The translations under genes were made by a program, and so were the position numbers. From Myxococcota bacterium (GTDB taxonomy: Bacteria > Myxococcota_A > Polyangia > HGW-17): DNA of 64,000 nucleotides. The stretch is from the NCBI GenBank assembly GCA_036802685.1, contig DAIRVS010000001.1, positions 14,804 to 78,803 on the forward strand. The letters are read 5' to 3'. Below are positions 1-31,342 of this stretch, in pieces (position 1 is the first letter of the stretch; every line of letters begins with the position of its first letter). Under the pieces are notes generated by a model. It saw nothing but the letters and a program-made list of their open reading frames with translations. It had not been told where the DNA came from and did no database searches.

Positions 1-1824
1 ATAGGCCAGCTGCTGGGCCGTCTCGCGCAGCGCCGACGGCCGGCGGTGGGGATCCTGCTGCAGGCAGTTCTCGATCAACTCCACGAGGCCGCCGGGCAGG
101 TCCGGCCGCACGTCCGAGAGCCGGCGGCGCAGGCCCTTGATCTTGTTCTGGATGATCGTCTGCGTGTTCTCCGACTGGTACGGCGGCACCCCCGCGAAGA
201 ACTCGTACACCACGGCGCCGAACGAGTAGATGTCGGCCGCGCACGTGGCCTTCTCGCCCAAAAGCAGCTCGGGGGCGATGTACTCGGGCGTCCCCAGGGT
301 GATCCCCGGCCGCGTGAGGTCCTCGTCCATCCCCGAGAACGACTTGGCGATGCCGAAGTCGATCAGTTTCACCCGCTCGTCGCCGGAGGCGTCGCGCACC
401 AGGTGCAGGTTGTCGGGCTTGATGTCCCGGTGGATCAGCCCCGCCTCGTGGGCGGCCGCGATCCCGTAGGCCACCTGGGAGGCGTACTTGCACGCGCGGT
501 GCGGCGCCAGCGGTCCCTGGGTCAGGATCTCGCCCAGGTTGTGGCCCTCGAGCAGCTCCATGACCAGGAACGGCTTGACTCCCTCGATGAAGCCGTAGTC
601 CAGCACCTCCACCACCGACGGATGCGAGACCCGCGAGGCAGCCTTGGCCTCGCGTTCGAAGCGCACGCCGGCCTCCTCGGGGGACATGCTGCCCTTGGGC
701 TCGAGGACCTTCACGGCCACGCGGCGTCCCAGGGGCTGGTGGATGGCCTCGTAGACGCGCCCCATGCCGCCCTCGCCCAGGATGCGGGTGATCTGGTAGC
801 GCGAGGCGACGAGGTCGCCGGCGCGGATCTGGATCTCGCGCTTGCGGCTGCGGAACTCCTTGTAATCCTCGAGGAGGCGCTCGCGGTGCCCGACCTGCTG
901 CTTGCGCTCGGTGACGAACAGCGCGTGCATGAACGCCGCCGCGTCCCGGGAGTCGGTGCCCGGCGCGTTCTGCCCGAGCCAGGTGTTGGCCAGGGCGACC
1001 ACGTCCGAGGCCGAGGGGCGCTCGTCGGGGTCCGGGTCGAGCATGGACAGGATCAGGGTGTCCAGGCGCTCGTCCCCGCGGCCGCACACCGCCGTGGGAG
1101 GGCGCACCCCGGGCCCCTGGGCGCGGGCCTTGAGCTCGCGCATCATGTCCTCCTCCTTGCCGGGCTCGAACAGGCGGTGGCCGGTCACGAGCTCCCAGAA
1201 GAGGATGCCCAGGGAGTAGACGTCGGTGCGGTCGGTCATCTCGTCCCCGGCGGCCTGTTCGGGAGCCAGGTAGGGGAGCTTCCCGTAGATGATGCCGGGC
1301 TTGGTCAGGCGGCGGTTCTGGCCGGTGAGCGCCAGCCCGAAGTCCAGCACCTTGATCTCCCCCGAGAAGGTGAACATCACGTTGGGCGGGGACACGTCGC
1401 GGTGCACCAGGTTGAGCCCGTTGAAGCCATGGGCGTAGGAGAGCCCGCGGGCGGCCTCCTTCATCGCATAGACGATCACCGGCAGCGGGAACGGGACCCG
1501 CATCTGCGCGCACTGGTTCCAGATGGCGCGCAGGTTCTCGCCCTCGACGAGCTCCATGGCCATGTAGGCTTCCTGCCCCAGCACGCCGACGTCGAAGACC
1601 GACACCAGGTTGCCGTGCGCCATGCGCAGGGTGATCTCCACCTCGGACTGGAAGCGCAACAGCGCGTCCGGCGTCTGCGAGGAAGAGAGGATCTTCTTGA
1701 TCGCGCAGAACTTCTCCAGTCCGGGTTCCCCGTACACGGCCAGGTGGACCTGGCCCATTCCGCCGCGCGCCAAGGGTTCGAGCAACGTGTAACGACCGAA
1801 GGGGATGAATGATGATGCGCTCAT
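1..1824 (-). CDS. Tandem two-domain Hanks-type Ser/Thr protein kinase (partial; 3-prime end runs off window start)
   Basis: Minus-strand translation verified by hand. The N-terminal domain has ARGGMGQV, CAIKK, HRDVSPPN, DFGLA and YLAPE. The second domain has GEGGMGRV, VAVKVL, HRDIKPDN, DFGIAK and GTPEYIAPE. ATG is at 1824-1822. It is not in the ORF track because it is truncated at the window edge. Confidence 0.9.
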   Translation of the reverse strand, partial: MSASSFIPFGRYTLLEPLARGGMGQVHLAVYGEPGLEKFCAIKKILSSSQTPDALLRFQSEVEITLRMAHGNLVSVFDVGVLGQEAYMAMELVEGENLRAIWNQCAQMRVPFPLPVIVYAMKEAARGLSYAHGFNGLNLVHRDVSPPNVMFTFSGEIKVLDFGLALTGQNRRLTKPGIIYGKLPYLAPEQAAGDEMTDRTDVYSLGILFWELVTGHRLFEPGKEEDMMRELKARAQGPGVRPPTAVCGRGDERLDTLILSMLDPDPDERPSASDVVALANTWLGQNAPGTDSRDAAAFMHALFVTERKQQVGHRERLLEDYKEFRSRKREIQIRAGDLVASRYQITRILGEGGMGRVYEAIHQPLGRRVAVKVLEPKGSMSPEEAGVRFEREAKAASRVSHPSVVEVLDYGFIEGVKPFLVMELLEGHNLGEILTQGPLAPHRACKYASQVAYGIAAAHEAGLIHRDIKPDNLHLVRDASGDERVKLIDFGIAKSFSGMDEDLTRPGITLGTPEYIAPELLLGEKATCAADIYSFGAVVYEFFAGVPPYQSENTQTIIQNKIKGLRRRLSDVRPDLPGGLVELIENCLQQDPHRRPSALRETAQQLAY

Positions 1825-1969
1825 GGGTCCACATTATCCCACATTGTTGCCCCTCGCAATTTTTGTCGCGTTTCTCGGCCGCGTTTTCCCCGAACACCTG
1901 TTTTTCCGCCGTGGACATTCAATTTTTCTCTGGTAGATTATGGGAACGGCCCGCCGGAAAGGAGTCCCC

Positions 1970-3385
1970 ATGAACACGAGACACCGCCTGTTCCTGATCC
2001 CGTGGATCCTGCTGTCCCTCGTCGCCTGCGACGACGGCGGCACGAAGACGGGGTTCAACTCCAACAACGTCAACAACACGAACAACACGAACAACGTCAA
2101 CAACACCAACAACGTCAACAATATCAACAACGTCAACAACACGCAGATGGCGATCATCCGGGGCCGCGTGTGGAGCCCGGGCAGCGACGACCCGTTGGTG
2201 AACGACCACAACCGCATGCCGGTGCCCGGCGCGCTGGTGGCCATCTACACCAGCGGCATCGACGCCCCCCCGGACGGCAACTACTGCAACGAGTGCGTCG
2301 AGCTGCCCGAGGGCCTGCCCCACGTGTTCACCGACGCCGACGGCGCGTTCGAGATCCTCATCTATCCGAACCAGACCTACAACCTGCTGGTGCAGAAGGG
2401 CGAGTTCCGCCGCGTCACCCAGATCAACGTGGGCGGCCCCGGCGAGGTGATGGACCTGAACTCCCCGGCCGGCATGCCCACCAACACGATGACCACGCTG
2501 CCCAACTTCCATGACCCCGGCGCCGGCGCCTGGATGCCGCGGATCGCGGTGATCAAGGGCGGCTACGAGGACATGTCGCTGATGTTCGAGGCCCTGGGCT
2601 TCGACTACGACGGCGCCCGCGTGATCGAGGTCGATCCGGCCAGCGAAATCGGCTTCCCGATCCCGCCGTCCGAGGCCGACGAGCTCCTGGCGAACCCGAC
2701 CGAGCTCGCGAAGTACAACATCATCGTGATCACCTGCGGCGGCTCCACCACCGCGCTCACCAAGGGCACCGAGGCCAACAACCTGCGCGAGTGGGTGCGC
2801 GCCGGCGGCAAGCTCTACGTCGATGACTTCTCGTACGACTGGGCAGAGCAGAACTGGCCCGAGTTCCTCTCGTACTACCAGGAGCAGGGCTCCCAGGGCG
2901 CCGACGGCATGGGCGTGTGCGGCGACGACGATCCCTCCAGCCTGGGTGTCTGCAACAACTGGACCTCGTACTCCTGCACCGGCACGCCCCAGGACCAGAT
3001 GCTCACCGACTGGCTGGCCCTCAACGAGGTCAACCGCGGCTCGCCGATCCACCTCGAGGCGGCCTGGGACATCATCCACGAGCTGGGCAAGGGTCCCATC
3101 GGCGTGTGCGAGGACGACATGAACCCGGACTGCATCGACGGCGTCTACTACGCGCTGCCCAAGGTGTGGATGCGCGGCGACGCCCCCTCGAACCACCCGA
3201 ACAACCCGATGACCGTCTCCTGGAACTACTACTGCGGCAAGATCCTCTACACCGTCTACCACACCCACTCCGAGAGCGGCGGCTCCACCGATCCCAAGCA
3301 GTATGAACTCCTGATCCAGGAGAAGATCATGATGTTCCTGATCATGGAGATCCAGACCTGCACCAAGCCCAACATCATCGGCTAG
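1970..3385 (+). CDS. Secreted lipoprotein with Asn-rich tether and carboxypeptidase-regulatory-like beta-sandwich region; C-terminal ThuA/GATase1-like region (tentative)
   Basis: In-frame start inside ORF 1940..3385 with AAAGGAG RBS. Signal peptide with lipobox LVAC, then NNVNNTNN tract. The CarbopepD_reg-like segment reads AIIRGRVWSPGSDDPLVND...VPGALVAIY...DADGAFEILIYPNQ. Confidence 0.75.
   Translation: MNTRHRLFLIPWILLSLVACDDGGTKTGFNSNNVNNTNNTNNVNNTNNVNNINNVNNTQMAIIRGRVWSPGSDDPLVNDHNRMPVPGALVAIYTSGIDAPPDGNYCNECVELPEGLPHVFTDADGAFEILIYPNQTYNLLVQKGEFRRVTQINVGGPGEVMDLNSPAGMPTNTMTTLPNFHDPGAGAWMPRIAVIKGGYEDMSLMFEALGFDYDGARVIEVDPASEIGFPIPPSEADELLANPTELAKYNIIVITCGGSTTALTKGTEANNLREWVRAGGKLYVDDFSYDWAEQNWPEFLSYYQEQGSQGADGMGVCGDDDPSSLGVCNNWTSYSCTGTPQDQMLTDWLALNEVNRGSPIHLEAAWDIIHELGKGPIGVCEDDMNPDCIDGVYYALPKVWMRGDAPSNHPNNPMTVSWNYYCGKILYTVYHTHSESGGSTDPKQYELLIQEKIMMFLIMEIQTCTKPNIIG
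2063..2142 (+). repeat. In-frame tandem 6/9-bp repeat encoding (NNV/NNT)n linker
   Basis: aacaacgtcaacaacacgaacaac... periodicity seen directly. Confidence 0.8.
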
Positions 3386-3401
3386 CCCCCCGGAATCCCT
3401 T

Positions 3402-3428
3402 CCAAATCGAAATCGAAATCGAAATCGG
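3402..3428 (+). repeat. Intergenic element CCAAATCG(AAATCG)3G, copy A, plus-strand orientation, about 16 nt after the stop of the 1970..3385 lipoprotein gene
   Basis: Sequence read directly. Near-identical to the reverse complement of 12780..12824. Confidence 0.7.
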
Positions 3429-3438
3429 TCCCGATGGC

Positions 3439-4095
3439 CTACCGAAGGGCGAAGATGAGCACGGTGGTGAGCACCAGCGTCACCGCGATGATGCCCAGGA
3501 CGAGGACGAGATCGACGAGGAACGACGAGTTGCGGGCGGTGGGAGGAGGAGGAGGCACGTCCACGGCCTCCATGCGCAGGGTCTGCTCGGTCTCCCGGCG
3601 CCGGGGACCGCGGGGGCCGGACAGGCCGGGGATGCCGTCGTACGATGGCGGGGTCTGCAACGGGGGCGGCGGCGGCAACTGGCTCTGGGAGCGCTGCAGG
3701 CTGCGGGCCCGGCTGCGGGCGACGATCTCGCTCAGGTCGGGGTCCGCGGTGGCCACCGAGGGCACCGACGGCACCGGCGCGTCGTCGTGCATCGAGGACT
3801 CCACCTCGCCGGCGGAGAACTCGACCATGCCGTCCATGGCGTTCTTGCCCAGTTGCAGCGGCTTGCGGGACGGCGGCGGGATGGCCGGCTTCTTCTTGCC
3901 CGCGCCGGCCACGGCCGGGACCGGCGCCGGCGGCGGGGCGAGCATCCCGCCGGGGACGGGCATCTTCACCGTGTCGTTGTGCACCTTCTGCTGGCGGGAG
4001 CGACCCACGATGGGCAGCGCGTAATTGCACTGCAGGCAGCTCCCCGCCTTCAAGGCCTTGCGATTGAGCTCGACTCCGCAACCCGGACAGCGCAA
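3439..4095 (-). CDS. Tail-anchored membrane protein with N-terminal zinc ribbon (CPGCG...CLQC), Pro-rich linker and C-terminal TM helix
   Basis: ORF 3439..4095. The start codon is TTG (no ATG at the ORF head). It lies 13 nt downstream of the phosphoesterase stop with a GGGGGA SD-like run. GC3-rich. The internal ATG (MPVPGG) is an alternative start. Confidence 0.55.
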   Translation of the reverse strand: MRCPGCGVELNRKALKAGSCLQCNYALPIVGRSRQQKVHNDTVKMPVPGGMLAPPPAPVPAVAGAGKKKPAIPPPSRKPLQLGKNAMDGMVEFSAGEVESSMHDDAPVPSVPSVATADPDLSEIVARSRARSLQRSQSQLPPPPPLQTPPSYDGIPGLSGPRGPRRRETEQTLRMEAVDVPPPPPTARNSSFLVDLVLVLGIIAVTLVLTTVLIFALR

Positions 4096-4108
4096 GACGA
4101 TCCCCCGG

Positions 4109-4852
4109 CTAGACGCCCACGAACAGGCGGTTCCCGAAGTTGCGGTCGATCTTGGCCTGGAAGATCTTCATGGCCGAAGCTTCGATGTCGTACTCGACGC
4201 GCTTGTACTGGAAGGTGCGCTTCTGCGTGTCGAAGATGGTGTAGGCGGAGCGGTTGTCGTAGTCCCGCGGCTGGCCGACCGAGCCGACGCCGATGATGTA
4301 CTTCATGCCCGGCCGGATCGAGAACTCCTGGGCCACGATCTCGTGCACGTCGGCGCGCTCGAGGGCGAACGCCCGGCACAGGTGGGAGTGACCGATGAAG
4401 TTGACGTCCTGCAGGCCGTCGAAGTGGGGCAGCAGTCGGTAGGCCTGCTCGATGGAGAACACGTAGTCGAACTTCTCGGGCAGCACCGGCGAGCCGTGGG
4501 AGTACTGGATCTGCAGATCGTCGACTGTCTCGCGCAGGGTGTACGGCAGCGAGGCCAGCCACTTCGCGTTCTCCTCCGAGATCGACGAGGCGTGCAGGTC
4601 CAGCACGAACCGGCAGGCCTCGTAGTAGTAGTTGTAGTCCATGCGGCCGGCGACGGCGGCGTCGTGGTTGCCCAGCACGCAGGCGCGCACCAGGGGCCGC
4701 ACGAGGTTGCAGCAGGCGTCGGGGCTGGCGCCGTAGCCCACGACGTCCCCCAGGCACACGAACGCGTCGACGGACTCCGACTCGTAGGCCTCGAGCACCG
4801 AGGTCAGGGCTTCCATGTTCGCGTGAATGTCGCTGAATATCGCAATCCGCAT
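4109..4852 (-). CDS. Calcineurin-like metallophosphoesterase (YfcE/DR1281-like)
   Basis: ORF translation shows the phosphoesterase motifs IFSDIHAN, GDVVGYG, GNHD and GHSH. GAGGAAA RBS precedes ATG 4852. Confidence 0.85.
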   Translation of the reverse strand: MRIAIFSDIHANMEALTSVLEAYESESVDAFVCLGDVVGYGASPDACCNLVRPLVRACVLGNHDAAVAGRMDYNYYYEACRFVLDLHASSISEENAKWLASLPYTLRETVDDLQIQYSHGSPVLPEKFDYVFSIEQAYRLLPHFDGLQDVNFIGHSHLCRAFALERADVHEIVAQEFSIRPGMKYIIGVGSVGQPRDYDNRSAYTIFDTQKRTFQYKRVEYDIEASAMKIFQAKIDRNFGNRLFVGV

Positions 4853-4935
4853 GCTTTCCTCATCCGTCCGTGGCTGGCAGCGCGCGCTTCCTGCGCAGTT
4901 TCTTGCTTTCGCGCACGAAAATCAAGGCCCGATTC

Positions 4936-6198
4936 TCAGAACGAGAAGCCCACGGAGAGTCCGCCGGCCTGGCCGGTGAAGAACGGCAGGAAGGTCACCG
5001 CGCCGTCGTCGGCGCCGACCTGTCCCTGGACCTCCGGCTCGGACGAGAGATAACCCTTGTACAGGAAGAACGTGGAGACCAGGCCCACCGTCACGCCCGC
5101 GGCCACCAGGATGTTGGTGTACATCGCGAAGGACTGGCCCTTGTCGCAGGTGTCCTTCATGTCGGCGGTCGGGTTCTTGCAGACGTCGTTGACGCCGGCG
5201 TACGAGGCCGGATCCGCCTTCATGATCTTGTCCTTGTCGTCCTCGTAGGCCAGCACCTGCAGGCCCGTGTAGGTCCCAGCGCCGATGAGCACGACGGCCG
5301 TGGCGGCCGTGGACCAGAAGCCCACCTTCCACAGGTTCATGGGCTTTCCGGGCTCCTCGGGCTTGGGCGGCGTGACGCCGGGATCCTTGCCGTCCGGGTC
5401 CTTCACGTCGGGATCCTTCACGTCCGGGTCCTTCACGTCCGGGTCCTTGACCACGGGGTCCTTCGGCGTCGGGTCCTTGACCACGGGGTCCTTCGGTGTC
5501 GGATCCTTGGGCATCACGGCCGCGGGGAACTCGACCTTGACGATGGTGGTCTCACCGGCCTTGATGGTGACCGAAGTCTTCCACTCGGCACCGGACTTGC
5601 TCTTCACGACGATGTTATGCGGCCCGGGGGTGATCGAGGGGATCACGTTGGCGCCCGGGATCGTGGACATGACGAAGACGTTGTCGATGAAGACCTTGGC
5701 GTCGGCCTCGAGGCAGGAGATCTCGAGCTTGGCCACCTTGGGCTGGAACTGGTTGTTCCAGGCCTCGGTCAAGAGTTTGGGGAGCTCGGCCTTCTTGCTC
5801 TGGGGCACCGAGACGTTGGCGAACTGGAAGGTCTTGTTGACGTAGAAGAAAATGGTGACCTTGAACTGGCTCGCGTCCTTGGTCACGCGGCCGGTGACCA
5901 GCACGTCGACCTGGAGGTTGGTCGCGATCTTGGGGATGCACTTCTGCGGATCCTCTTCCTCGCAGTAGAGCAACTTGTTCTCTTCGAGCTCCGACGGCGG
6001 CCCCAGCTTCCAGTCGGCCTGCTTCTTGGCCAGATCCCGCAGCGTGTTGGTCGCGGTCTTGCCCAATTGGACGTCTAGGCCGGCGTCCACCTCGAACCCC
6101 AGCACCACCGCCTTCTTCGAGCTGGCCAGCGCGGGCGTGCAGAACGTGAAGATCAGGAGAAAAGCCGCTAGTTGTCGTGAGAACATCGTCGCCTCCAT
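4936..6198 (-). CDS. Secreted PEGA-domain protein with (KDPxV)n charged repeat tract and C-terminal two-TM anchor module
   Basis: Start moved to MEATMFSRQ... at 6198, giving a signal peptide ending ALASS. The PEGA-like segment reads VFIDNVFVMSTIPGANV...GPHNIVVKSKSGAEWKTSVTIKAGETTIV. KDP repeats follow. Hydrophobic segments occur near the C-terminus. Confidence 0.75.
   Translation of the reverse strand: MEATMFSRQLAAFLLIFTFCTPALASSKKAVVLGFEVDAGLDVQLGKTATNTLRDLAKKQADWKLGPPSELEENKLLYCEEEDPQKCIPKIATNLQVDVLVTGRVTKDASQFKVTIFFYVNKTFQFANVSVPQSKKAELPKLLTEAWNNQFQPKVAKLEISCLEADAKVFIDNVFVMSTIPGANVIPSITPGPHNIVVKSKSGAEWKTSVTIKAGETTIVKVEFPAAVMPKDPTPKDPVVKDPTPKDPVVKDPDVKDPDVKDPDVKDPDGKDPGVTPPKPEEPGKPMNLWKVGFWSTAATAVVLIGAGTYTGLQVLAYEDDKDKIMKADPASYAGVNDVCKNPTADMKDTCDKGQSFAMYTNILVAAGVTVGLVSTFFLYKGYLSSEPEVQGQVGADDGAVTFLPFFTGQAGGLSVGFSF
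5381..5510 (-). repeat. In-frame tandem 15-bp repeat encoding (P/V/D)KDP(T/V/D)V units
   Basis: gggtccttcacgtccgggtccttgaccacg... periodicity seen directly. Confidence 0.8.
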
Positions 6199-6273
6199 CC
6201 GTTCGTGACAAGTTACTATACATAAACTGAACCGAAAGACAACTTCCGACTGACAAGGGTGGTTCATGTGAAA

Positions 6274-6287
6274 GTTCACGTGTGAAC
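6274..6287. promoter_or_regulatory. Perfect 14-bp palindrome GTTCACGTGTGAAC in low-GC region upstream of the PEGA gene (candidate operator)
   Basis: Seen directly, about 76-89 nt upstream of start 6198. The flanks contain additional TGAA/TTCA half-sites. Confidence 0.3.
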
Positions 6288-6376
6288 GTGGCGTGAATGT
6301 TCGGTGAAGATTTTAGCCACTATGTAGGCCGTTTTTATGCCAAACGCCACCAGCCATGGGACATTTTTTCCACAGT

Positions 6377-8339
6377 TCATTTCCTTACAACGCGAAAGCC
6401 GGTGACGTAACTCAATCCCGTAGGAGAGTATCCTCCTCGATAGGACACTGAGCAGTAATTCGCCGTACTGGCCCAGTTTCCACCGCGACGAACGCGGTTG
6501 GTTCCTGTAGCCGACCCTCGATAATCCGTAACGGTTCCCGTTGGGTAGGTGCCGAAATAATCCCACATCCATTCCCATACGTTTCCGCTCATATCAAAAA
6601 TTCCGAGTTCGTTGGACAACTTGGTGCCCACGGAATTACTTCGTCCCGTTGTGGTTCGGCCAGTCTCACTTGTGTTGTACCCGAACACCGCATAATCCAT
6701 GATGGGGTTTGATCCTGTGCTTCCAGCGAATACCTTCATGAACCCGGTCGTGTTCGTGGCGCCCGGGGCAGCCGTGTCAGCGCCCATCGCCGCCCACATC
6801 CACTCCATTTCGGTTGGCAGCCGATACCCATCGGCTGTCCAGTTCGCCGTCGCTGCGTCCCAATCGGCGTTCGTGTCCATCGGAATCTGATCGTAAGTCA
6901 GACTGTTAAAATCGACACCGATGACTGAGTAAACTGGCGTCAACCCCCTCTAAAAGACTCAATTTGTTGCAGAAAGCAACCACCCTATACCATGACACAC
7001 TTTGCACAGGGTCGCTCATTCCCCCCGAAACCGATGGATCGCTCGGGTCCAGCCATCCCGTCACGGCCATCCATTGGGCTCGGGTAATTTCGTATTGGCT
7101 TATCCGAAAAGCCGACACAATGCTAAGGTTCGGTCCCATCGTGTCCCGCTGGAAAGTTCCGGCTGCAACATAGACCATCGTTCCGATGTTCTGGCTCTGG
7201 TAATTCATCGTGCAAGTTGATGTCACAAACCCGGTACAACCTGAATTGCAGGTGAGCAGTCCGCTGGCGAAACCCCGCGTGACACATGTCTGTCCATTCA
7301 GGTTCGATCCATCACACGTCTCACTTTCATCGATCATTCCGTTGCCGCACATCGTGCAAGTGGACGTGACAAACCCAGTACAGGCTGGGTTGCACGCGAG
7401 TGACCCGCTGACGAAGCCTTGTGTGACACAGGTGTGGCCATTTAAATTTGATCCATCACAAGTCTCACCATAGTTACCCTGGATGACTCCGTCACCGCAA
7501 CGCCCTGCCAAGACACAGGAAGTGTCGTCGAAGGCCTGGCAATCTGTGCTGCAAGAGAGCGTTCCTCCATACCAACCTTGAGAGACGCAACTCTGCCCGT
7601 TCATGTCTGCTCCGTCACAGGTTTCACCGCCATCGATTGCTCCGTTGCCACACATCGTGCACCCACCTGTAAAAAACTCCGAACATCCGGCATTACATAC
7701 CAGCGTACCGCTGACGAAACCCTGCGAGAAACAAGTCTGTCCATTCAAATCCAGTCCATCGCAAACTTCCTCATCATCCACAGAGTCATTGCCACAGTTC
7801 GTGCACCCCGACGTATCGAACGCTGTGCACTCCGAATTGCAACCAAGCACGCCGCCATAAAAGCCGAGCGAAGTACACGTCTCGTCATCCAGATCCGTGC
7901 CGTCGCAGGGTTCAAACGGACTCGCAGCCACGAGGTCCCCACATTCCGCCGTCAGTTCGCACAGAGAGACGTCCCAACGGCACACGTCCTTGCATCCGAG
8001 CACACCACCACCCAACCCCAACTCCGAGCAGGATGTATCTGCCAAATTGACACCATCACATTGCTCTCCATGGACTGTTTGGATGGCTCCGTCCCCGCAA
8101 CGCCCTCCTGTGCACACCGCGAGGTTGAACGTGCAATCGCTTCGACAGGTTAAAACACCTTCTTGCCCATAGTAGCCCAAGTCCGCGCACGTCGCGGCTG
8201 TCATCGCATCACCGTCGCACTCCTCGCCCGGATCCAAGAAATCGTCGCCACAGGAATCGACGTTCTTCGTCTTCGTATCGCAGCCCCACACCAGCAGACA
8301 GGTGCCCAACAGCATCGAGATCAAGGTCCTTATGGTCAT
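6377..8339 (-). pseudogene. Frameshifted paralog of the lipoprotein / Myxococcus Cys-rich repeat / FGE-sulfatase domain protein
   Basis: Two overlapping minus ORFs (6906..8423 and 6377..6943) together align with the intact paralog 29324..31327. The break is at a G5 run (forward c5 at 6943-6947): gagggggttgacgcc here versus gaggggttgacgcc in the paralog, a +1 frameshift. Start MTIRTLISMLLGTCLLVWGC at 8339 with GGAGGA RBS. The gene has markedly lower GC than its neighbours. Confidence 0.7.
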
Positions 8340-8490
8340 GGCGGTCCTCCAGAGGATGGAAAAAGCGTAGTCGGTTCCCGCATCACGGTCAAGCATCAGA
8401 ATTTCCTCCATTTCCTGGTACAAGATCCATGAAGCGGACCCTGACCCGCCGATACCCCAATTTTTTTTAACAAAAACAAGCAGTTAGACC

Positions 8491-8637
8491 ATGTCACATG
8501 AGTTTGAGTCAGGCTTTTTCCATGCCACGCCGCCGTGGCACGGGCTGGGAACCATCCTCGAGGACCCGCCCGAGACCGCTCCCCCCCGCAACGCGGGTGT
8601 TCAGTTACCAATAATTCCAGTCGACTTCACCAATTGA
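8491..8637 (+). pseudogene. Remnant (N-terminal ~48 codons) of a DUF932 / TIGR03299 phage-plasmid-like protein
   Basis: A short ORF in a low-GC intergenic patch translates to MSHEFESGFFHATPPWHGLGTILED... The HE.ESG...TPWHGLG pattern is, to my recollection, the N-terminal hallmark of 300-aa DUF932 proteins. The ORF stops after 48 codons. Confidence 0.35.
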
Positions 8638-8830
8638 AGATGTTTACCCTTGAACCCACTGGAGAAGAAAACATGCGCGTGAATACCCACCCTCTGGTTT
8701 GAATGGATGATCTTCACCGAGTGAGTTACTGCAGCAGCACCAAAAGGACCGGCACTCATCGTAGCGCACAAACAGCTTGCGTTCGGGCGGTGGGGGCGGC
8801 ACCCTCGGAGGCGGACGAAAGGAGGTCCCC

Positions 8831-9430
8831 ATGAAGAAGCTCGTCACCCTCTGCGCGGTTCTCGTCACGCTGACCGCGGCCGGCGCCGCGGCCGGACAGG
8901 CGCGGATGCGCACCCCGATGGACCTGGCCCAGTGGTCGAAGACCGGGGGCGGCGGCGTCACCCTGGACGGCATCTCGTACACCGACGAGGAGGACCACAA
9001 GGTCAGCGGCAAGATCCTGCGGGCCGACCCCTGGGCGGGCCTGTTCGTGCTGCCCAGCCTGGCCGTCGTGGGCAACCTGCACGTGCAGAGCCCGTTCGGC
9101 GACCACTTCGTGGACCGGCCCGACGTACTCGGCTTCACCGCCGGCGTGCGTTACTTCAAGCAGCTCTATCATTTCTACGGATACGTCGGGCTCCAGCTCG
9201 GCGGCCTGATCTTCTCGCGCACCGGCGACGAGAACCTGAAGATCCACGCCGAGGGTCTCAACGACGACACCAAGGGCTTCATGGCGACGCTGCCCCTGGG
9301 CCTTTTGTTCCCGCTGAGCCGCAACCTGGCCGTGGAGCTGGGCGTGCGCGTGCACTCCGTCTGGCTGTCCGGGGGCGCCCACTGGCTGGAGTATTCGGTG
9401 GGCTATCTGGGCATCTTTTTGTGTTTCTAA
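8831..9430 (+). CDS. Small outer-membrane beta-barrel-like protein (signal peptide, alternating amphipathic strands, C-terminal Phe)
   Basis: In-frame start MKKLVTLCAVLVTLTAAGAAAG with AAAGGAGG RBS. Ends ...GIFLCF. Confidence 0.65.
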   Translation: MKKLVTLCAVLVTLTAAGAAAGQARMRTPMDLAQWSKTGGGGVTLDGISYTDEEDHKVSGKILRADPWAGLFVLPSLAVVGNLHVQSPFGDHFVDRPDVLGFTAGVRYFKQLYHFYGYVGLQLGGLIFSRTGDENLKIHAEGLNDDTKGFMATLPLGLLFPLSRNLAVELGVRVHSVWLSGGAHWLEYSVGYLGIFLCF

Positions 9431-9434
9431 AGAA

Positions 9435-11282
9435 TCAGTTCGGCACGCAGCGGTAGTTGTCCGCGGGGGGTCCGGTGAAGGTGGTGCCGATGTCGCCGCC
9501 CAGGGTGCCGTCGGCGTTCTCGTAGCCGATGGTGGCCGAGAAGCCCGATCCCAGCCAGGTGGAGCGGTCGTAGATCACCTCGAAGGCGTTGGAGCCTTCG
9601 TACAGGCGGATCTGCATGGTCACCTTGGAATCGGTGCCGCCACCGATGATGCGACACTGGTGCCATTCGAGCACGAACACCCGGTTCGGCGAGGAACCTT
9701 GGGTCTGGTACAAGAGCCGGGCGTCGGGCCAGGTGGTCTGGGAGTAGACCAGATCGTCCCAAAAGATGTAGATCGCGGCGTTGGGCGTCGCCGAATTGGG
9801 GAGGGTGGTGTTGGTCCATTCGTTGGTGCCAGGGTCGGCACCGAAAGAGGCCCAGCCGTTGGTACAGAAATAGCCATCCGTGTAGTTCTGACCGAAGTAG
9901 CGGAAGGTGAAGGGGATCGTGAACGGGAAACGCCCGTCGATCACCCAGGTTTCCGTGGTGAGCGACGTGCCGGAGTACCGGATCGTCGAGTAGGTCGCGG
10001 CGAGGGCCGAGCAGGTGTAGGCACCGGCGGGGGCCTGGCAGATTCCGGCGTTGCAGGTCTGGCCCAGGGCGGCGCAGTCGGTGCCGTTGGCCCAGCTCCA
10101 GCAGCCGTAGCCGTCCTGGACGCAGGACTGGGTGACGCTGCCGTCACAGCGGGCCTGACCCGAGGAGCAGGCGTTGTTGCACACGCAGGTGTTGCCCGAG
10201 CAGGACCGTCCGGTGGCCGCGCAGTTGATGCCGTCGGCCCAGTCGTAGCAGCCGGTGCCGGCGAGCGAACACGACTGGATGACGTCGCCGAAGCAGCGCA
10301 CGGCACCCGAGGCACAGGTGTCGGTGCAGGTGTTCACGCACTGAGCCGAGCCCGAGGAGGTGTCGCACACCTGACCCAAGCCCGCGCAGTCCTGCACCGT
10401 GCTCCAGGCCCGGCAGCCGTTGCCGCCGGTGACGCAGCTCTGGCGGACGGTGCTCAGACAACGGGTGCTGCCGTCGGCGCACTCGTGCACGCAGGAGCAC
10501 GCGCCCCCGGAGCACACCTGGCCCGCGGCGGCGCAGTCGGCGCCGTTCACCCAGATGCGGCAGCCCGAGCCGTCGGTGCCGCAGGTCTGCACCACGTTTC
10601 CGCTGCACTGGGGCGGGGCGCCCGCCTCGCACTGGTGGACGCAGGGATCGGTGCAGGCGGCCGCGGCGCCGGTCCCGGTGCACACCCAGTTAGTCAGCGC
10701 GCAGTCCTGCACGTCCTTCCACTGGGCGCAGCCATTCTCGCCGGCCTGGCAGCGCTGCAGCACGTTTCCCGTGCAGAAGCCGTCGCCGAGGGTGCAGGCG
10801 TCGGTGCAGGAGTCCGCGCAGGCGGCGGAGCCCGAGGCGTCGTCGCACACCTGGTCGCCGGTCGCGCAGTCCACCGAGGTCTCCCACGCGCGGCAACCCT
10901 GGTCGTCGGCCGCGCAGAGCTCGAGGAGGTTGCCGTTGCAGCGCAGCGCGCCGGCCGGATCGCAGGTGTGGTTGCAGGCCGCGCGGCAGAACGTGGTGTT
11001 GTACGCGCACGACGAGGAGCAGCCCAGGCTGCCGCTGGCGAACCCTAGGCTCACGCAGGTGGCGCCGCCCAGATCGCCGCCGTCGCAGTCCTCGCCGTCC
11101 GAGAGGACGCCGTCCCCGCAGCCGGCTTCGGTGCAGTCCTGCGGACAGGAGTCCGCGTCCTCGGCGGGCTGGCAGGTGCCGTCGCCGCAGGTGGTCACGC
11201 CGCCGCCGCCCTTGGCGCAGGAGAAGAGGGCGCCGACGAGGGCGGTGGAGAGAAGAAGGATAAAATATTTTTTGATAAACAT
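9435..11282 (-). CDS. Secreted lipoprotein with Myxococcus cysteine-rich repeat, eight ~47-aa Cys-rich repeats, and a C-terminal beta-rich domain
   Basis: True start MFIKKYFILLLSTALVGALFSC at 11282, in frame with ORF 9435..12413 whose upstream part is an antisense artefact over ackA. Repeats C..G..RC.GN..Q.C...G.GC..W....DCA..GQVC occur 8 times. A CGDG...CD..DLGGATCVSLGF module is present. Confidence 0.75.
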   Translation of the reverse strand: MFIKKYFILLLSTALVGALFSCAKGGGGVTTCGDGTCQPAEDADSCPQDCTEAGCGDGVLSDGEDCDGGDLGGATCVSLGFASGSLGCSSSCAYNTTFCRAACNHTCDPAGALRCNGNLLELCAADDQGCRAWETSVDCATGDQVCDDASGSAACADSCTDACTLGDGFCTGNVLQRCQAGENGCAQWKDVQDCALTNWVCTGTGAAAACTDPCVHQCEAGAPPQCSGNVVQTCGTDGSGCRIWVNGADCAAAGQVCSGGACSCVHECADGSTRCLSTVRQSCVTGGNGCRAWSTVQDCAGLGQVCDTSSGSAQCVNTCTDTCASGAVRCFGDVIQSCSLAGTGCYDWADGINCAATGRSCSGNTCVCNNACSSGQARCDGSVTQSCVQDGYGCWSWANGTDCAALGQTCNAGICQAPAGAYTCSALAATYSTIRYSGTSLTTETWVIDGRFPFTIPFTFRYFGQNYTDGYFCTNGWASFGADPGTNEWTNTTLPNSATPNAAIYIFWDDLVYSQTTWPDARLLYQTQGSSPNRVFVLEWHQCRIIGGGTDSKVTMQIRLYEGSNAFEVIYDRSTWLGSGFSATIGYENADGTLGGDIGTTFTGPPADNYRCVPN

Positions 11283-11361
11283 CGCACGCGCTCCCTCTAG
11301 CGCGCCCAGTATAGCGTCAAAACGCGGATCTGCGAGGAAAAGATCCCCCGTGGTCGGGAGC

Positions 11362-11380
11362 ATTCTTTTCTGTGAAAAGA
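11362..11380. promoter_or_regulatory. Palindrome TTCTTTTC-TGT-GAAAAGAA in the divergent promoter region between ackA and the Cys-rich lipoprotein gene
   Basis: Perfect 8-bp arms with 3-nt spacer, seen directly. Confidence 0.3.
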
Positions 11381-11492
11381 AAAACAGATCATCCTTGCCA
11401 CCGGGATCCGGTTCCAGTACCGTGGGCCCGGTGCCCGAGCCCCGGGCCGGGGGCAGGCCGGACGGCGGTCCTGCCTCCCAGGAGGTCATTCC

Positions 11493-12692
11493 ATGCTCGT
11501 GTTCGTGATCAACTGCGGTTCTTCGTCGATCAAGTACCAGCTCTTCGAGATGCCCGAGAAGCGCCAGCTCGCCCGCGGCCTGCTCGAGCGCATCGGGGAG
11601 ACTGGTTCGGCGGTGCTCACCCACCGCGCCGGCGAGGGCAAGTGGATCCTCGAGGTGCACGCGCCGGATCACCGGGCCGGCCTCGACCACATCCTGCGGA
11701 CGCTGGTCTCCGGGGAGACCGCCGTCATCGACGACCTGTCCAGCATCCGGGCGGTGGGCCACCGCGTGGTGCACGGCGGAGAGCAGGTCCGTGAGGCCGT
11801 GGTCATCGACGCCGCGGTGGAGGACGTGATCGCCGGGTGCGCCGAGCTCGCCCCCGTGCACAACCCGCCCAACCTCATGGGCATCCGCACCGCGCGGGCC
11901 GTGCTGCCGGACTGCGTCCAGGTGGCCGTGTTCGACACCGCCTTCCATCACACGCTGCCGAAGAAGGCCTACCTGTACGCCCTGCCGCTGGAGCTCTACG
12001 AGCAGCACCGCATCCGCAAGTACGGCTTCCACGGCACCTCCCACGAGTACGTCGCCCAGGAGACCGCCCGCCGGCTCGGGAAGCCGCTTTCGGCGTGCAA
12101 CCTCATCACCTGCCACCTGGGGAACGGCTGCTCGATGACCGCCATCGAGGCCGGTCGCTCGGTGGACACCTCCATGGGGATGACGCCGCTGCAGGGGCTC
12201 ATGATGGGCACGCGCAGCGGCGATCTGGACCCGGCCGTGCTGATCCACCTGCTGCGCAACGGGTGGGTCGCCGACGTCGCCGAGCTCGACCGCCTGCTCA
12301 ACCGCAAGTCCGGCCTGGCCGGCATCTCGGGGCTCGGCAACGACATGCGCACCCTCGAGGAGCACATGGAGACGAACGAGCGGGCCAAGCTGGCCGTGGA
12401 AATGTTCGCCCACCGGGTGCGCTTCTACCTGGGCGGCTACCTGGCGCTCCTGGGTTCCTGCGACGCCGTGGTCTTCACCGGCGGCATCGGCGAGAACGAC
12501 TCCCTGCTGCGCCGGCTCGTGCTCGAGGGTCTCGCCCCGCTGGGCCTGGAGCTGGACCCGGCGGCCAACACCGCCACCGTGCGCGGGAAAGAAGGCGCGA
12601 TCACCACCGCGGCGAGTCGCATCCCGGCGCTGGTGATCCCCACCGACGAGGAGGGCATGATCGCCGCGAGCACCTACGCCCTGGCCCGCTAG
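11493..12692 (+). CDS. ackA: Acetate kinase
   Basis: N-terminal VINCGSSSIKYQLF hallmark. Full-length 399 aa. GGAGG RBS. Confidence 0.95.
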   Translation: MLVFVINCGSSSIKYQLFEMPEKRQLARGLLERIGETGSAVLTHRAGEGKWILEVHAPDHRAGLDHILRTLVSGETAVIDDLSSIRAVGHRVVHGGEQVREAVVIDAAVEDVIAGCAELAPVHNPPNLMGIRTARAVLPDCVQVAVFDTAFHHTLPKKAYLYALPLELYEQHRIRKYGFHGTSHEYVAQETARRLGKPLSACNLITCHLGNGCSMTAIEAGRSVDTSMGMTPLQGLMMGTRSGDLDPAVLIHLLRNGWVADVAELDRLLNRKSGLAGISGLGNDMRTLEEHMETNERAKLAVEMFAHRVRFYLGGYLALLGSCDAVVFTGGIGENDSLLRRLVLEGLAPLGLELDPAANTATVRGKEGAITTAASRIPALVIPTDEEGMIAASTYALAR

Positions 12693-12779
12693 CCACCCAG
12701 GGACCCCCGCAAAAGGGCGGCCCGTTTGAGGTCCGCGACCCGAAGACGGGTCACGAAGTGACCGGAATCATCTTCTTCT

Positions 12780-12824
12780 CCGATCCCGATTTCGATCCCG
12801 ATTTCGATTTCGATTTCGACTTGG
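12780..12824 (-). repeat. Intergenic element CCAAGTCG(AAATCG)3 GGATCGAAATCGGGATCGG, copy B, minus orientation, about 20 nt after the stop of the minus-strand RCC1 lipoprotein gene
   Basis: The reverse complement of the forward sequence matches copy A over CCAARTCGAAATCGAAATCGAAATCGG. Confidence 0.7.
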
Positions 12825-12842
12825 AACCGGAGTCGGACCCGG

Positions 12843-14870
12843 TCACAGGGAATAATCGTCCACGGGGAGGATCACGCGGCGGGGCACCAAGGCGGCGGTG
12901 GTGGTCAGGTTCCCCAGCTGGCCTTCGGAGTTGTGGCCCCAGCAGTACAGTTCGCGGTCCGCAGTGAGCCCGCAGGTGTGGGTGACGCCGGGAGAGACGG
13001 CGTTGAACCGCAGATCGGTGACGACCGTGGTGGCCGTACTGCGATTCGTAGTGGTGCCGTCGCCGAGCTGGCCGTACTGGTTCCACCCGAAGCACAGGGT
13101 GGTCCCCAGCACGCCGTGGAGCAGACAGGTGTGGGAGCCGAAGGTCCACGTCGCCGCGGCGTCGATGTGGCCGTCGATCTGCACCGGCGTGAGACGGTTG
13201 GTGAAGGTGGCGTCGCCGAGTTGGCCGTAGTTGTTCAGGCCCCAGCAGTATACGATCCCGCCGGTGGTCCGGGCGCAGGTGTGGCCCGTGCCGCAGGTGA
13301 CGGTGGCGATGTTGGTGAGGGAGGAGATGGCCACCGGCACCCGGGAGTCCGTGGTGTTGCCGGTGCCGAGCTGGCCATTGTCGTTACGACCCCAGCACAC
13401 CCCGTTTCCAGTCTGATTACGCAAACAATTGTGTTCGTAGGAGCTTGAGATTTGAGTAGCCAAAGACACCCCCGAGACCTGCACCGGCACCGCGCTCGAG
13501 GTCGTCGAGTTGTTGCCCAGTTGGCCCCGGGCGTTGTCCCCGAAGCACCACGCGGTCCCGAGGAGGGTCAGGACGCAGGTGTGCCGAAAGCCCAGGCCCA
13601 GCTGGATCGCGTTGGTGAAGATCCCCGCCCGCACCGGCAGGGACGAGTGGGCGGCGATCCCGTGGCCCAACTGGCCCGAGTCCCCCCGGCCCCAGCACCA
13701 CACCTCGCCGCCGGCGCGCAGGGCGCAGGTGTGGAAGTAGCCGGCCTGCACCGCGGTGACGTCCTCGAGGCCCTGGACCAGCACCGGTCCGGTCCGGTCC
13801 GCGGTGGTGCCGTCGCCGAGCTGGCCCATGGAGTTGTCCCCCCAGCACAGCACCCGTCCGGTGTTCAGCAGGGCGCAGGTGTGCAGGTAGCCCGCGGACA
13901 CGGCCACCGGATACCGGAGGCGGTTGCACAGGTACTCCTCGCGGGTGACCTCGGGATCGCCCAAAACGCCGTCCCCGTCGAGGTCCAGCCCCGTCTCGAC
14001 GAGCACGCCGCCATAGGGGCAGGCGCCGCCCCACTCCACCGTCGTCAGCCGGGTGAGGGCGTTGTGGCCGTGGCACACGGCCTGTTCGTCCTGGACCTCG
14101 CCGTCGCCGAGGGCGCCGTCCCCGTCGGTGTCCAGCCCCGTCTTCACGAGGAGACCGCCCTGGGGACAGGGCGCGCCCGGCGCCAGCGGATCCACCCGCA
14201 CCAGGGAGTTGGTCCCGACCGTTCCGTCCTCGCCGGGGGCCCCATGGCAGACATAGGAGACGTCGTCCACCTCCAGCGGTCCGAGGACGCCGTCGCCGTC
14301 GTCGTCGAGGCCGGTGGAGACGGCCAGGCCGCCGTGCAGGCAGTTCGCGCCGGCGGGCTCGTCCAGAATGCTCACCAGGGAGGCGGGACCGCCGCCGGTG
14401 CCCGACGCGCTCTGGCAGACAAGGTTTGAACTCGTTCGTTCGTCTTCATCCAGAACCGCATTCCCGTTCTGGTCCAGACCCCAGTAGTAACGCTGGCCGC
14501 CGTTGGGACACTCGACGCCGGGGGCGAGCTCCTCCACGTGGAGGAGCGTGGACAGCCCGTCCCGCCCGTCCTGGCCGTCCTGGCCGTTTTCACCGTTTTC
14601 ACCGTTTTCACCGTCCTCGCCGTCGTCGCCGGGGAGCCCGTTGCAGACCGTCTGGATGCTCTCGATCTCGCCGGTCTCCAGGGCCCCGTTGCCGTTGGTG
14701 TCCTTTCCGGCCATGACCACCATACCCCCATACGGGCACTGGATGGACGAGGCCGACTCGATGAGCACCAGGGTGCCCTGGCCGTCCTGGCCGTCCTGGC
14801 CGGTGCAGGCCAGGAGCGCCCAGAGCAGCGACGACGTGAGCAGCAGACGGCGATGGAACAACTTGCGCAT
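12843..14870 (-). CDS. Lipoprotein with collagen-like G-x-y tracts, five ~45-aa CPxGG / D-x-D-G-D-G (Ca-binding-like) repeats and a C-terminal RCC1-repeat beta-propeller
   Basis: Start [22 protein letters not shown] at 14870 (codon 132 of ORF 12843..15263). Eight or more CWGxNxxGQLGxG RCC1-type repeats. GQDGQDGQG and [19 protein letters not shown] tracts are present. Confidence 0.8.
14563..14640 (-). repeat. In-frame 9-bp tandem repeat encoding [16 protein letters not shown]
   Basis: ggccgttttcaccgttttcaccgttttcacc seen directly. Confidence 0.8.
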
Positions 14871-15025
14871 GGAGACCTCCGAAGCGGCGGGAGCCGTGGA
14901 AAAATGGGGTGGACGCTGCTTATCCAATAGGCTGGAAAAGTCAAGCTGAATCCGTGCGCCCATTGTCGTCCCCCCGCGACCGCGGTTGCGGAAAAATGTG
15001 AAAAAGTGAAAACGGAAAGCACCCG

Positions 15026-15646
15026 TCAGCGGTGATACAGGACGAGCCAGCCGGCCAGAGCCCCCAGGGCCAGCGCCAGGGCGGCGACCTGCCACCGGGG
15101 GAGCGCCAGGGCGGCGGCGAGCCAGGCCGTCGGCCCCAGCCGCGGCGGGCGCAGGCGGAACGCCGGGAAGCCGGCCCCATCGTCGTCGGGCCAGAGCGGC
15201 TTCAGGGTGGCCCTCAGGGCGTCGAGGTCCGCCGGACGCCGCGCGCGGGTCCTGGCACAGCACGCCCCCAACAGGTCCCGCGTCGGGGCGTCCAGGTCGG
15301 CGACGGCCCGCCAGGCCCGGGCGGCCCCGTCGTCCAGCGCCCAGTGGGCGTATTCCATGGACGCCGGCGGGGGCACCGCGGCGGCCGGATCGTCACGCAA
15401 GGCCAGCAGGACGACGCCCAGCACGTACAGGTCCGACCGCACGTCGGGGCGCCCGTGGGAGAACAGGAGCTCGGGCGGCGGGAACTGCCAGTCGGCGCGG
15501 CACGGCGGACCGGTGAAGCGCGTCCCGGGGCGGTGCGACAACTCGGCGCCGACGTGGGCGGCCAGGGCCACGAGGGTGGCGCCTTCGGCCGGCCGCTCGA
15601 GATACGTGAAGCACCCCGGCAGGGTCCGGGCGGGGTCGGCGGGCAT
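15026..15646 (-). CDS. Kinase C-lobe-like fragment protein with C-terminal TM helix (truncated Ser/Thr-kinase-derived; possibly a pseudogene)
   Basis: ORF begins 7 nt after the rex stop. GC3-rich. [26 protein letters not shown] resembles kinase subdomains VIII-IX. There is no N-lobe, HRD or DFG. The C-terminus is hydrophobic, [29 protein letters not shown]. Confidence 0.4.
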
Positions 15647-15652
15647 GGGGTC

Positions 15653-16264
15653 CTACCGCTTGCGGGGCCAGTGACCGGCGATCCGGTGGGCGAGCTTGTA
15701 CATGCCGTAGGCGATCTGGGCGTTCTCGATGAACACGTCGCGGTAGCGGTGGAGCTCGGCGGCGGTGAAGTTGTAGATGGCGCGCACGCCGGCCTGGACC
15801 AGGCGATCGGCGACCTCGACGGCCACCTCCTCGGGCACCGTGAGGACGGCGATGTCCACGGGCTGTTCGGCGATCCGCCGCTCGAGTTGGTCCATGGACT
15901 CGACCCGCACGGCCCCCACCGCCTCGCCGATGACGGCGGGATCGGTGTCGAAGATCAACTGCACGCAGAAATTGTGGCAGTCCGAGCCGTGGTAGTGCGC
16001 CAGCGCGCGACCGATGCGCCCGAAGCCGACGATGGCCACGCGGTACTTGTGGTTGAGCCCCAGGATCTTCTCGACGGCGTCGATGAGAAAATCGATGTTG
16101 TAGCCGTAGCGGGCCTTGCCGAACACGCCGAAGTACGACAGGTCCTTGCGGATCTGCGTGTCCTTCACGCGCAGGCTGTCGCCGAGCATCTGGCTGGAGA
16201 CCTGGTCGATGCCGGCGGTCTTGAACCGGTACAACTGCATGAGGTACCGGGGCATGCGCTCCAT
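15653..16264 (-). CDS. rex: Redox-sensing transcriptional repressor Rex
   Basis: RVSSQMLGDSLRVKDTQIRKDLSYFGVFGKARYGYNIDFL matches Rex winged-helix and NADH-sensing Rossmann regions. Start MERMPRY at 16264. Confidence 0.85.
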   Translation of the reverse strand: MERMPRYLMQLYRFKTAGIDQVSSQMLGDSLRVKDTQIRKDLSYFGVFGKARYGYNIDFLIDAVEKILGLNHKYRVAIVGFGRIGRALAHYHGSDCHNFCVQLIFDTDPAVIGEAVGAVRVESMDQLERRIAEQPVDIAVLTVPEEVAVEVADRLVQAGVRAIYNFTAAELHRYRDVFIENAQIAYGMYKLAHRIAGHWPRKR

Positions 16265-16346
16265 GGTCGCGGCGGGGATTGGGATCTGGTCTTTTCCTGC
16301 GGGGCCGGTCGGACTCAAGGTTCCACCTCGGGGCACCCGCAGCGGA

Positions 16347-17192: not shown

Positions 17193-17253
17193 GGATTCAC
17201 GCTCCCACGCGAATGTAGCGGAAAGGGCGCAGGGGCGCAAAAAACCGACGCGC

Positions 17254-17655
17254 TCAGGAGCGGCGGGCCGGGCGGGCGGGACCGGGGGTCTCGACGTGGT
17301 GCTCGTCGACGATGCGGTTCGCGCCGTCCACGAGGACCACCGTGGGGCGGTGGCCGACGGCCTCTGACACCTCGTACTGGGCGAAGGTGGCGATGATGAT
17401 CACGTCGCCGGGGTGGACCAGGTGGGCGGCGGCGCCGTTCACGCAGATGACGCCGCTGTGCTCGGGTCCCTCGATGGCGTAGGTGGTGAGGCGGGCGCCG
17501 GTGGTCACGTCCCAGACGTGGACCTCCTCGTAGGGCAGGATGTCCGCGGCGCGCATGAGGACGGCGTCGATGGTGAGCGACCCCTCGTACTCCAGGTCCG
17601 CCTGCGTCACGGTGGCGCGATGGATTTTGGATTTGAACAAGGTCCGCGTGCTCAT
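17254..17655 (-). CDS. panD: Aspartate 1-decarboxylase with ~15-aa Pro/Arg-rich C-terminal extension
   Basis: [30 protein letters not shown]...VNGAAAH closely parallels E. coli PanD, including the Gly-Ser self-cleavage site region. Confidence 0.9.
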
Positions 17656-17880: not shown

Positions 17881-17882
17881 GG

Positions 17883-31327: not shown

Positions 31328-31342
31328 TTTCGGAGGCTCTCC

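Follow-up and report, generated by a model that had tools for sequence, protein, structure and literature searches.

How did a short segment of conspicuously low G+C content, carrying one interrupted gene and the stub of another, come to lie between two core genes of a high-GC bacterium? The segment occupies about positions 6199-8830 of a stretch of 64,000 nucleotides (hereafter the window) from a metagenomic contig of an uncultured, Haliangium-like member of the Myxococcota. The original prediction, made from the sequence alone, had described it as a horizontally acquired insertion in the process of degrading. We conclude that this patch is probably the eroded remnant of a mobile-element module, lodged in a recombination-prone slot between the two core genes. 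The intact module would consist of a divergent pair: on one side a DUF932 gene followed by a gene for a protein of about 125 amino acids (aa) and one for a PD-(D/E)XK nuclease, and on the other a gene for a secreted Cys-rich lipoprotein with a binding domain similar to TvpA. The evidence lies in a large difference in G+C content at third codon positions (GC3), in the DUF932 stub and in the incongruence of the alleles that occupy the slot in different relatives. Taken together, these point to replacement or acquisition of an allele from an element-borne pool at a hot spot.

Composition and limits of the patch

The G+C content of positions 6199-8830 is 54.3% compared with 67.2% for the rest of the window. 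Among all segments of 2632 nucleotides (nt) this is the minimum, about 3.9 standard deviations under the mean of 66.7%. The trough runs from about 6150 to 8850, with values of 0.48-0.59 in 300-nt windows compared with 0.60-0.74 on either side. The contrast originally noted by eye, and with it a non-uniform profile, is clearly present, although the estimate of 45-50% was slightly too low. GC3 is 0.60 in both halves of the patch gene but 0.83-0.97 in 17 neighbouring genes; it is 0.86 in a paralog elsewhere in the window (29342-31327). When calculated per 40 codons, GC3 of the patch gene is 0.47-0.72 throughout, with the exception of the first 40 codons (0.82). The foreign composition is therefore real and is extreme at third codon positions.

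The limits of the foreign DNA are narrower than those of the low-GC segment: the core of the supposed insertion stands, but both of its edges are native. On the left, positions 6187-6329, upstream of a 416-aa core gene (4936-6186, minus strand), are low-GC intergenic DNA that belongs to the host and is not an import. Among the loci fetched for comparison (numbered with L), L148 is 84-87% identical to this region over its positions 6191-6344 and 6482-6553, while 6165-6251 is 93% identical to positions 1-87 of L147. On the right, positions 8764-8830 (plus strand) are the native upstream region of a 199-aa core gene (8831-9430), with 95% identity to L142, L143 and L144 and 87% to L145 and L147. 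Relatives align from 8764 onwards and are all mutually divergent directly upstream. Loci fetched early gave no match to 8581-8920 or 6150-6400; it was the later relatives that matched 6100-6329 and 8764-8825. Since native DNA extends to 6329 on the left and resumes at 8764 on the right, the foreign segment covers at most about 6330-8763.

The DUF932 stub

The 48-codon open reading frame (ORF) at 8491-8637 (plus strand) is divergent from the lipoprotein gene and lies 151 nt from it. The original prediction had likened its product to the N-terminus of DUF932 proteins, and this identification proved correct. Its first 30 codons (8491-8580) are those of a DUF932 gene (PF06067/TIGR03299), and unrelated sequence then continues to the stop at 8637. 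In NCBIfam the ORF matches TIGR03299 ('phage/plasmid-like protein') with an E value of 0.0055 over profile positions 1-34 of 312; the Pfam DUF932 model misses the 48-aa product. Comparison with individual genes is more informative: the first 30 residues are identical to those of the DUF932 proteins of L090, L089 and L099 at 26, 22 and 29 positions, respectively (tblastn E 4e-14). The motif MSHEFE..TPPWHGLGT of the family is present in the stub, and the full-length relatives match PF06067 and phrog_1221 at E 1e-65, but the patch keeps only 30 of about 326 codons. Downstream of 8580 there is no more DUF932 similarity in any frame, which implies that about 296 codons have been deleted.

Homology at the DNA level ends at the same place. 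Positions 8583-8212 are 80% identical to L099 and 8579-8399 are 79% identical to L090, so that similarity stops at 8579-8583 and takes in the stub, all of the intergenic DNA and the 5' part of the lipoprotein gene. The divergent intergenic region itself (8340-8490, a promoter or leader region) is conserved with other copies of the module. To judge from these alignments, the 48-codon ORF is a DUF932 remnant and not a gene. A tblastn search with the 48-aa stub against phage records gave only matches with E >= 0.8. Between the break point and native DNA lies a filler of 180 nt (8584-8763; 57% GC), with no match in any fetched locus or elsewhere in the window.

A recurrent DUF932-lipoprotein module

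The pairing is found elsewhere in an intact form. Two of the three closest lipoprotein homologues that we looked up are on contigs bearing DUF932: full-length PF06067 genes (324-326 aa) are located divergently upstream of those for P0001 (58% identity; L089) and P0009 (57%; L090 and L091). The closest homologue, P0003 (62%), adjoins a Gp49/HTH toxin-antitoxin pair and a transposase. A metagenome scan with a DUF932 alignment gave 50 loci. A Cys-rich gene lies divergently upstream in 8 of the 11 metagenome loci with a close DUF932, whereas the distant DUF932 loci from other taxa (30-44% identity) all lack one there. This constant divergent arrangement, with a gene for a Cys-rich lipoprotein as partner, was seen only for DUF932 of the Myxococcota type and not for distant members.

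DUF932, the gene of about 125 aa and the PD-(D/E)XK nuclease are conserved as a set in L089, L090 and L094, and the nuclease matches phage exonuclease PHROGs. The L090 island also includes McrBC, HTH_17 and primase-like proteins (BT4734-like, and DUF5906 by homology to L141). GC3 of the module is 0.75-0.83, compared with 0.91-0.97 for host genes on the same contigs. Only one relative of the DUF932 module, at 35% identity, is present in IMG/VR, which indicates that the element is not a catalogued virus, and we found no paper describing such a pair of DUF932 and Cys-rich lipoprotein genes.

Truncation of DUF932 is not peculiar to the window. Other copies are cut at about codon 16 (L141), 27 (L139), 51 (L136), 59 (L135) and 129 (L099), and that of L132 has an internal deletion. 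Such varied cut points show that DUF932 has been lost repeatedly and independently beside a retained lipoprotein gene. In L141 (6001-7116) the first 16 or so DUF932 codons continue in frame into a DUF5906 P-loop fragment, itself homologous to a 772-aa protein of the L090 island.

The leader and signal-peptide DNA (8212-8425) is 76-84% identical across L089, L090, L094, L136, L099, L148 and L151, whose family members share only 42-60% protein identity in the repeat region. This conserved segment could be a regulatory element or a recombination anchor.

The lipoprotein gene and its frameshift

The lipoprotein gene (8339-6377, minus strand) would encode 653 aa once its frameshift is repaired. It includes a signal peptide, seven Cys-rich repeats and a C-terminus with the FGE-sulfatase (formylglycine-generating enzyme) or C-type-lectin fold. 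The signal peptide (8280-8339, minus strand) is preceded by a GGAGGA Shine-Dalgarno sequence and ends in a lipobox-like VWGC (MTIRTLISMLLGTCLLVWGC), for which homologues have LGC or VAC. The repeats (7206-8252, minus strand) were defined by repeat parsing and by two families of direct repeats in the DNA (D1 and D2). They are arranged in tandem, are about 50 aa long and contain six Cys each (CGxG..E.CDG..L.G..C..LG..G.L.C...C.F..S.C).

The gene comprises two overlapping ORFs, 6906-8423 and 6377-6943 (both minus strand). As originally predicted, it is frameshifted: a run of five C (6944-6948; five G on the coding minus strand) carries a single +1-nt frameshift, which leaves a 477-aa product and a separate ORF of 188 aa. 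Removal of one C fuses the two into 653 aa and regains the family-typical ...CNKLSLLEGLTPVYS... motif; the repaired junction reads ...AFCNKLSLLEGLTPVYS..., like the homologues. This is the only lesion. An alignment of 98 homologues has 121 columns with conservation of 85% or more; the patch copy keeps the conserved residue in 116 of them, the family median being 4 deviations. PF03781 matches the repaired protein with an E value of 7.8e-31 over profile positions 4-255 of 255 and takes in the whole C-terminal 270 aa.

The original prediction considered the gene to be a divergent paralog of the intact copy in the window, with a different repeat consensus. Neither point is upheld. By inspection, both proteins carry the same type of six-Cys repeat of about 50 aa, and the paralog differs by the addition of three acidic double-disulfide repeats. 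Of the available repeat models (TIGR02232, NF033662 and PF13948), none matches the patch protein, even at E values of up to 10 in NCBIfam and 1 in Pfam, whereas the paralog matches NF033662 at E 1e-20, and TIGR02232 under its cut-off. The family is large, with 2176 matches at E <= 0.001. The closest homologues of the patch protein are Myxococcota metagenome proteins with 57-62% identity, compared with 43% for the in-window paralog. On these identities the patch gene is to be classed as a xenolog, not as a product of duplication.

The intact paralog, with its Cys-rich and acidic double-disulfide repeats and FGE fold, is directly followed, within 29342-33139, by a gene with the same kind of Cys-rich N-terminus fused to RCC1 repeats. 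The family thus swaps C-terminal domains.

Is the gene nevertheless alive? The extra C might be an assembly or sequencing error, or be bypassed by +1 slippage on G GGG G, in which case only DUF932 would be decaying. The lesion is indeed single and located in a homopolymer, the domain is fully conserved, and the call is based on assemblies at about 8.7x coverage, with position 6944 outside all the unitigs that were fetched. We nevertheless regard this explanation as doubtful. Two assemblies, those of ENA and NCBI, both record the truncated 477-aa product, and none of the 120 homologues listed requires a frameshift, their reading frames being uninterrupted. A run of five nucleotides is short for ribosomal slippage, and homopolymers of this length are seldom mis-called in short-read assemblies. 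As sequenced, the gene can give no more than the truncated 477-aa protein, which lacks a complete binding domain, and the module has therefore probably lost its function.

The slot in relatives

A scan of genome collections gave a single close relative, L006, a metagenome-assembled genome labelled uncultured Haliangium sp. (ackA 85% identical). It is collinear with the window from 9435 onwards, has its homologue of the 199-aa gene 6.2 kb away and shows no match to the left. The homologues of the 199-aa and 684-aa genes, which are adjacent in the window, are separated in L006 by a 6.2-kb insert (1737-7963; 44-60% GC) that holds a 1219-aa ORF without a Pfam match. Further relatives were found via homologues of the 199-aa protein.

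In these relatives the slot between the core genes has very different contents. The neighbourhood is wholly conserved in L148, with flanking proteins 66-95% identical to those of the window, and the slot contains a 650-aa member of the lipoprotein family (P0050; GC3 0.88) and an N6_N4 DNA methyltransferase. L151, whose flanking DNA is 87% identical, carries a family member with GC3 of 0.75 at a distance of only 146 nt to the core gene and has no DUF932 stub. L146 and L147 (199-aa homologue about 85% identical) have no lipoprotein gene but only a remnant of 51 nt, 88% identical to window positions 8356-8406 and also present in L145. From L147 position 69 onwards L145 is the same as L147; upstream it has a tyrosine integrase, HTH_17 and a DUF5906 primase. 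L142 (199-aa homologue 90% and ackA 95% identical) has an element of the same type as L145 together with a type I restriction-modification (R-M) system. The site is thus conserved while its occupation varies (empty, an integrase element, divergent alleles, or rearranged as in L006), and no relative carries a segment identical to that of the window.

The integrase elements mark their own junction. A conserved hairpin (GAAAGACAACTTCCGACT; 6230-6251, minus strand) lies where, in relatives, the element meets host DNA, at the equivalent of about window position 6232. This assignment is based on L147 (empty) and L145 (occupied), which differ before L147 position 69, and on L142, which has the motif after the integrase gene. 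In the window itself nothing is inserted at this site. Next to the junction, L147 (70-248) and L142 (9516-9764) carry tandem palindromic repeats of about 125 nt (CCCCCCGTAGGACG...CGTCCAACGGGGGG), which the window lacks.

The alleles found in the slot do not follow the relationship of their hosts' flanking genes. The first 202 aa of the patch protein are 70.8% identical to the DUF932-linked P0009 but only 50% and 46% identical to the slot alleles of L151 and L148, and the best match of the L151 allele (73%) is again a different protein. By this comparison the slot alleles are not orthologous in the ordinary sense.

These results bear on the possibility of an ancestral slot gene passed on by vertical descent, whose divergence and low G+C content would be due to very fast evolution under diversifying selection, or to relaxed selection with AT-biased mutation. 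L148 and L151 do have a gene of the FGE family in this slot, in the same orientation, and L148 shares 82-87% identity with positions 6100-6329 and with the first 75 or so nt of the gene (8212-8285). For GC3 to fall to 0.60 from values such as 0.75 (L151) or 0.88 (L148), however, massive silent change would be necessary in a gene that has a single lesion and retains 116 of 121 conserved residues. In addition, slot alleles are closer to proteins elsewhere (70.8% and 73%) than to each other (46-50%), and the matches of the DUF932 stub and of the intergenic region are to element-borne copies. We therefore consider vertical descent unlikely. AT-biased decay of a pseudogene, as a cause of the low GC3, is ruled out by the single lesion and normal residue conservation.

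The TvpA-like domain and possible retroelement-driven variation

The C-terminal domain of the patch protein (6380-7199, minus strand) was originally described as an FGE. The solved structure closest to it is that of Treponema denticola TvpA (PDB 2y3c), with an E value of 3.9e-43 over 248 residues. TvpA is the variable protein of a diversity-generating retroelement (DGR) and has an FGE-type C-type-lectin fold; it lacks FGE activity and is presumed to function in binding (PMC5758913). The two share the C-terminal scaffold and, as aligned, a residue other than Cys at the first catalytic Cys position of true FGEs. They differ in that the patch protein has seven Cys-rich repeats as its N-terminus and in that no cognate template repeat (TR) or reverse transcriptase (RT) was found for it. 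True FGEs of the SUMF1 type (PDB 6muj and 2q17) have PF03781 in common with the patch domain, but the similarity is weak (about 1e-10). In the alignment with 6muj, the first Cys of the catalytic pair is replaced by Ser while the second is retained (GGNWASTANYC versus GGSYLCHDSYC). Since one catalytic Cys is missing and the domain resembles TvpA, it is not a bona fide FGE, and the term serves only as a label for the fold.

The family has a fixed C-terminal scaffold (GGxW...A..C.VA.R....P..R....GFRVVR) surrounding hypervariable positions, which in the patch gene corresponds to about 6394-6487 and resembles the variable region (VR) of a DGR. S, Y, N, G and D are abundant at the hypervariable positions; K, E, Q, M and W account there for 6.7% compared with 13.6% in other variable columns, a bias whose p-value is indicative only, the sequences being related. 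In four family members (L086c, L089a, L089b and L090) all 16-17 variable codons are of the form NNY, compared with about 40-44% in the rest of the stretch concerned. In the patch copy 11 of the 16 variable codons are of this form, a proportion close to background. When IMG/VR was searched with a TR pattern built on the scaffold, a true DGR was retrieved, L152, in which 23 of 27 TR/VR mismatches are at TR adenines. Its target, a 625-aa FGE-fold protein, shares the scaffold and is 39% identical (E 2e-43); within L152 4589-8300 the RT is located at 7125-8300, the TR at 8128-8270 and the VR at 6326-6468.

Could the patch gene then be, or recently have been, the remote target of a DGR, with the patch forming part of a DGR-bearing element? 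The match to TvpA, the residue bias, the NNY codons of the four relatives and the retrieval of L152 all favour such a link. Searches for the machinery gave nothing. Self-search of the VR-like 3' ends of both FGE-fold genes over the window revealed no TR-like copy but only the coding homology of the paralogs (67%), a hypothetical TR had no free-standing copy in any fetched locus, and tblastn with the L152 RT gave no match in the window at E <= 1 and no RT homologue in the fetched loci. A family-specific TR pattern had 0 matches in IMG/VR, and the codons of the patch copy are themselves close to background. A DGR target at this position is thus improbable, and we treat the DGR link as a lead on the lipoprotein family rather than as a property of this locus.

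A wider proposal, which we put forward only tentatively, is that the family is a large group of hypervariable surface receptors in uncultured Myxococcota, whose binding loops might be, or might once have been, written by DGRs acting on remote targets and which might be spread and exchanged as cassettes by integrative DUF932 islands using the conserved 5' leader and signal-peptide segment as a recombination anchor. The slot would then be one of several contingency-like loci with replaceable alleles, and the patch allele one that was recently swapped in and has since been inactivated.

Origin of the patch

That the patch is a chimera, in which a high-GC genome was joined to the homologous gene of a lower-GC population through conserved family segments, is very improbable. 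In its favour, this is a metagenome contig (NODE_169 of ERZ724098, of which NCBI has a longer version), the family has conserved 5' and 3' segments, and the Logan unitigs are interrupted at 6806, within the gene, and at 8650. Against it, one non-branching unitig (L005) runs at 100% identity from the native 416-aa gene through the native intergenic DNA into 430 nt of the low-GC3 gene, a second (L002) joins 8650 onwards to native genes, and breaks within the gene are expected from its internal repeats. Overall, the independent Logan unitigs (SRR6007444) are 100% identical over 3406-6806 and 8650-22692 and tie native genes to both ends of the patch.

An eroded element module therefore remains the explanation that we prefer. 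The allele would stem from an element-borne copy of a lineage with lower GC3 and would have entered the slot through integration or recombination, displacing or joining an earlier family member. A later deletion would have taken the rest of the element. The frameshift would be recent, because no other lesion has accumulated. Horizontal origin, as originally proposed, is thus supported; because some relatives have a family member in the slot, replacement at a hot spot fits better than a simple insertion de novo. The degradation that had been proposed applies to DUF932, cut to 30 codons, and to the reading frame of the lipoprotein gene, which can be called decaying only in the sense of its one lesion. 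Acquisition followed by decay is an ordinary kind of event, but here it reflects real horizontal transfer.

Several observations weigh against this explanation. Neither an integrase or tRNA nor att-like direct repeats or further element genes occur in the window; with recombinase and att sites missing there, the mechanism of entry can only be inferred. The slot is occupied by a family member in L151 and in L148, where it has a native GC3 (0.88) and where the 3' flank is conserved with the window; the presence of a gene in the slot may therefore be old and the allele alone new. No donor has been sampled: the best match is 62% identical, and all sampled modules have a higher GC3 than the window copy. 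The coverage of about 8.7x and the lack of a fetched unitig over 6944 also affect the frameshift in this explanation, and the 180 nt at 8584-8763 are unexplained.

Other features of the window

An Rfam scan of 5900-9100 gave nothing at E <= 1, and a scan for promoters and terminators gave no excess over shuffled sequences, the hairpin at 6230-6251 being the sole notable site. Repeats flanking the patch, whether direct or inverted, were not found; there are only gene-internal repeats and chance matches of 12-16 nt. No homologue of the integrase, primase or HTH_17 protein of L142 and L145 occurs within the window, nor does a PDDEXK nuclease or methyltransferase.

There is a second patch of lower G+C content (about 60%) at 38355-40301 (minus strand), with a 649-aa ORF resembling a membrane protein (GC3 0.73; no Pfam match). 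A lipoprotein gene at 1940-3385 has an Asn-rich, low-complexity linker (NNVNNTNNTNNVNN...). This linker accounts for a dip in G+C content at about 1650-2100, where GC3 is unchanged (0.96-0.97).

Comparison with genomic islets and significance

The patch can be compared with decayed integrative islets such as P4-like and integrase-primase islands. Like these, it has an atypical composition and a truncated element gene, and its slot in relatives is empty, occupied by integrase, HTH_17 and primase genes, or otherwise filled. Defence cargo, which such islets carry, is present on intact relatives of the patch in the form of type I R-M and McrBC. Unlike such islets, it has no integrase, att repeats or tRNA in the window. 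The only links between the DUF932-lipoprotein module and the integrase elements of L142 and L145 are the L090 island, with its HTH_17 and DUF5906 proteins, and the DUF932-DUF5906 fusion of L141.

The main value of these results lies in correct annotation: the patch gene should be recorded as a frameshifted xenolog with a TvpA-like domain and the 48-codon ORF as a DUF932 remnant. The module of DUF932 and Cys-rich lipoprotein genes marks mobile islands in uncultured Myxococcota. At the codon level there is, in addition, a hint of DGR-type variable regions in the lipoprotein family; if confirmed, this would point to targeted hypermutation of surface receptors in predatory or social bacteria.

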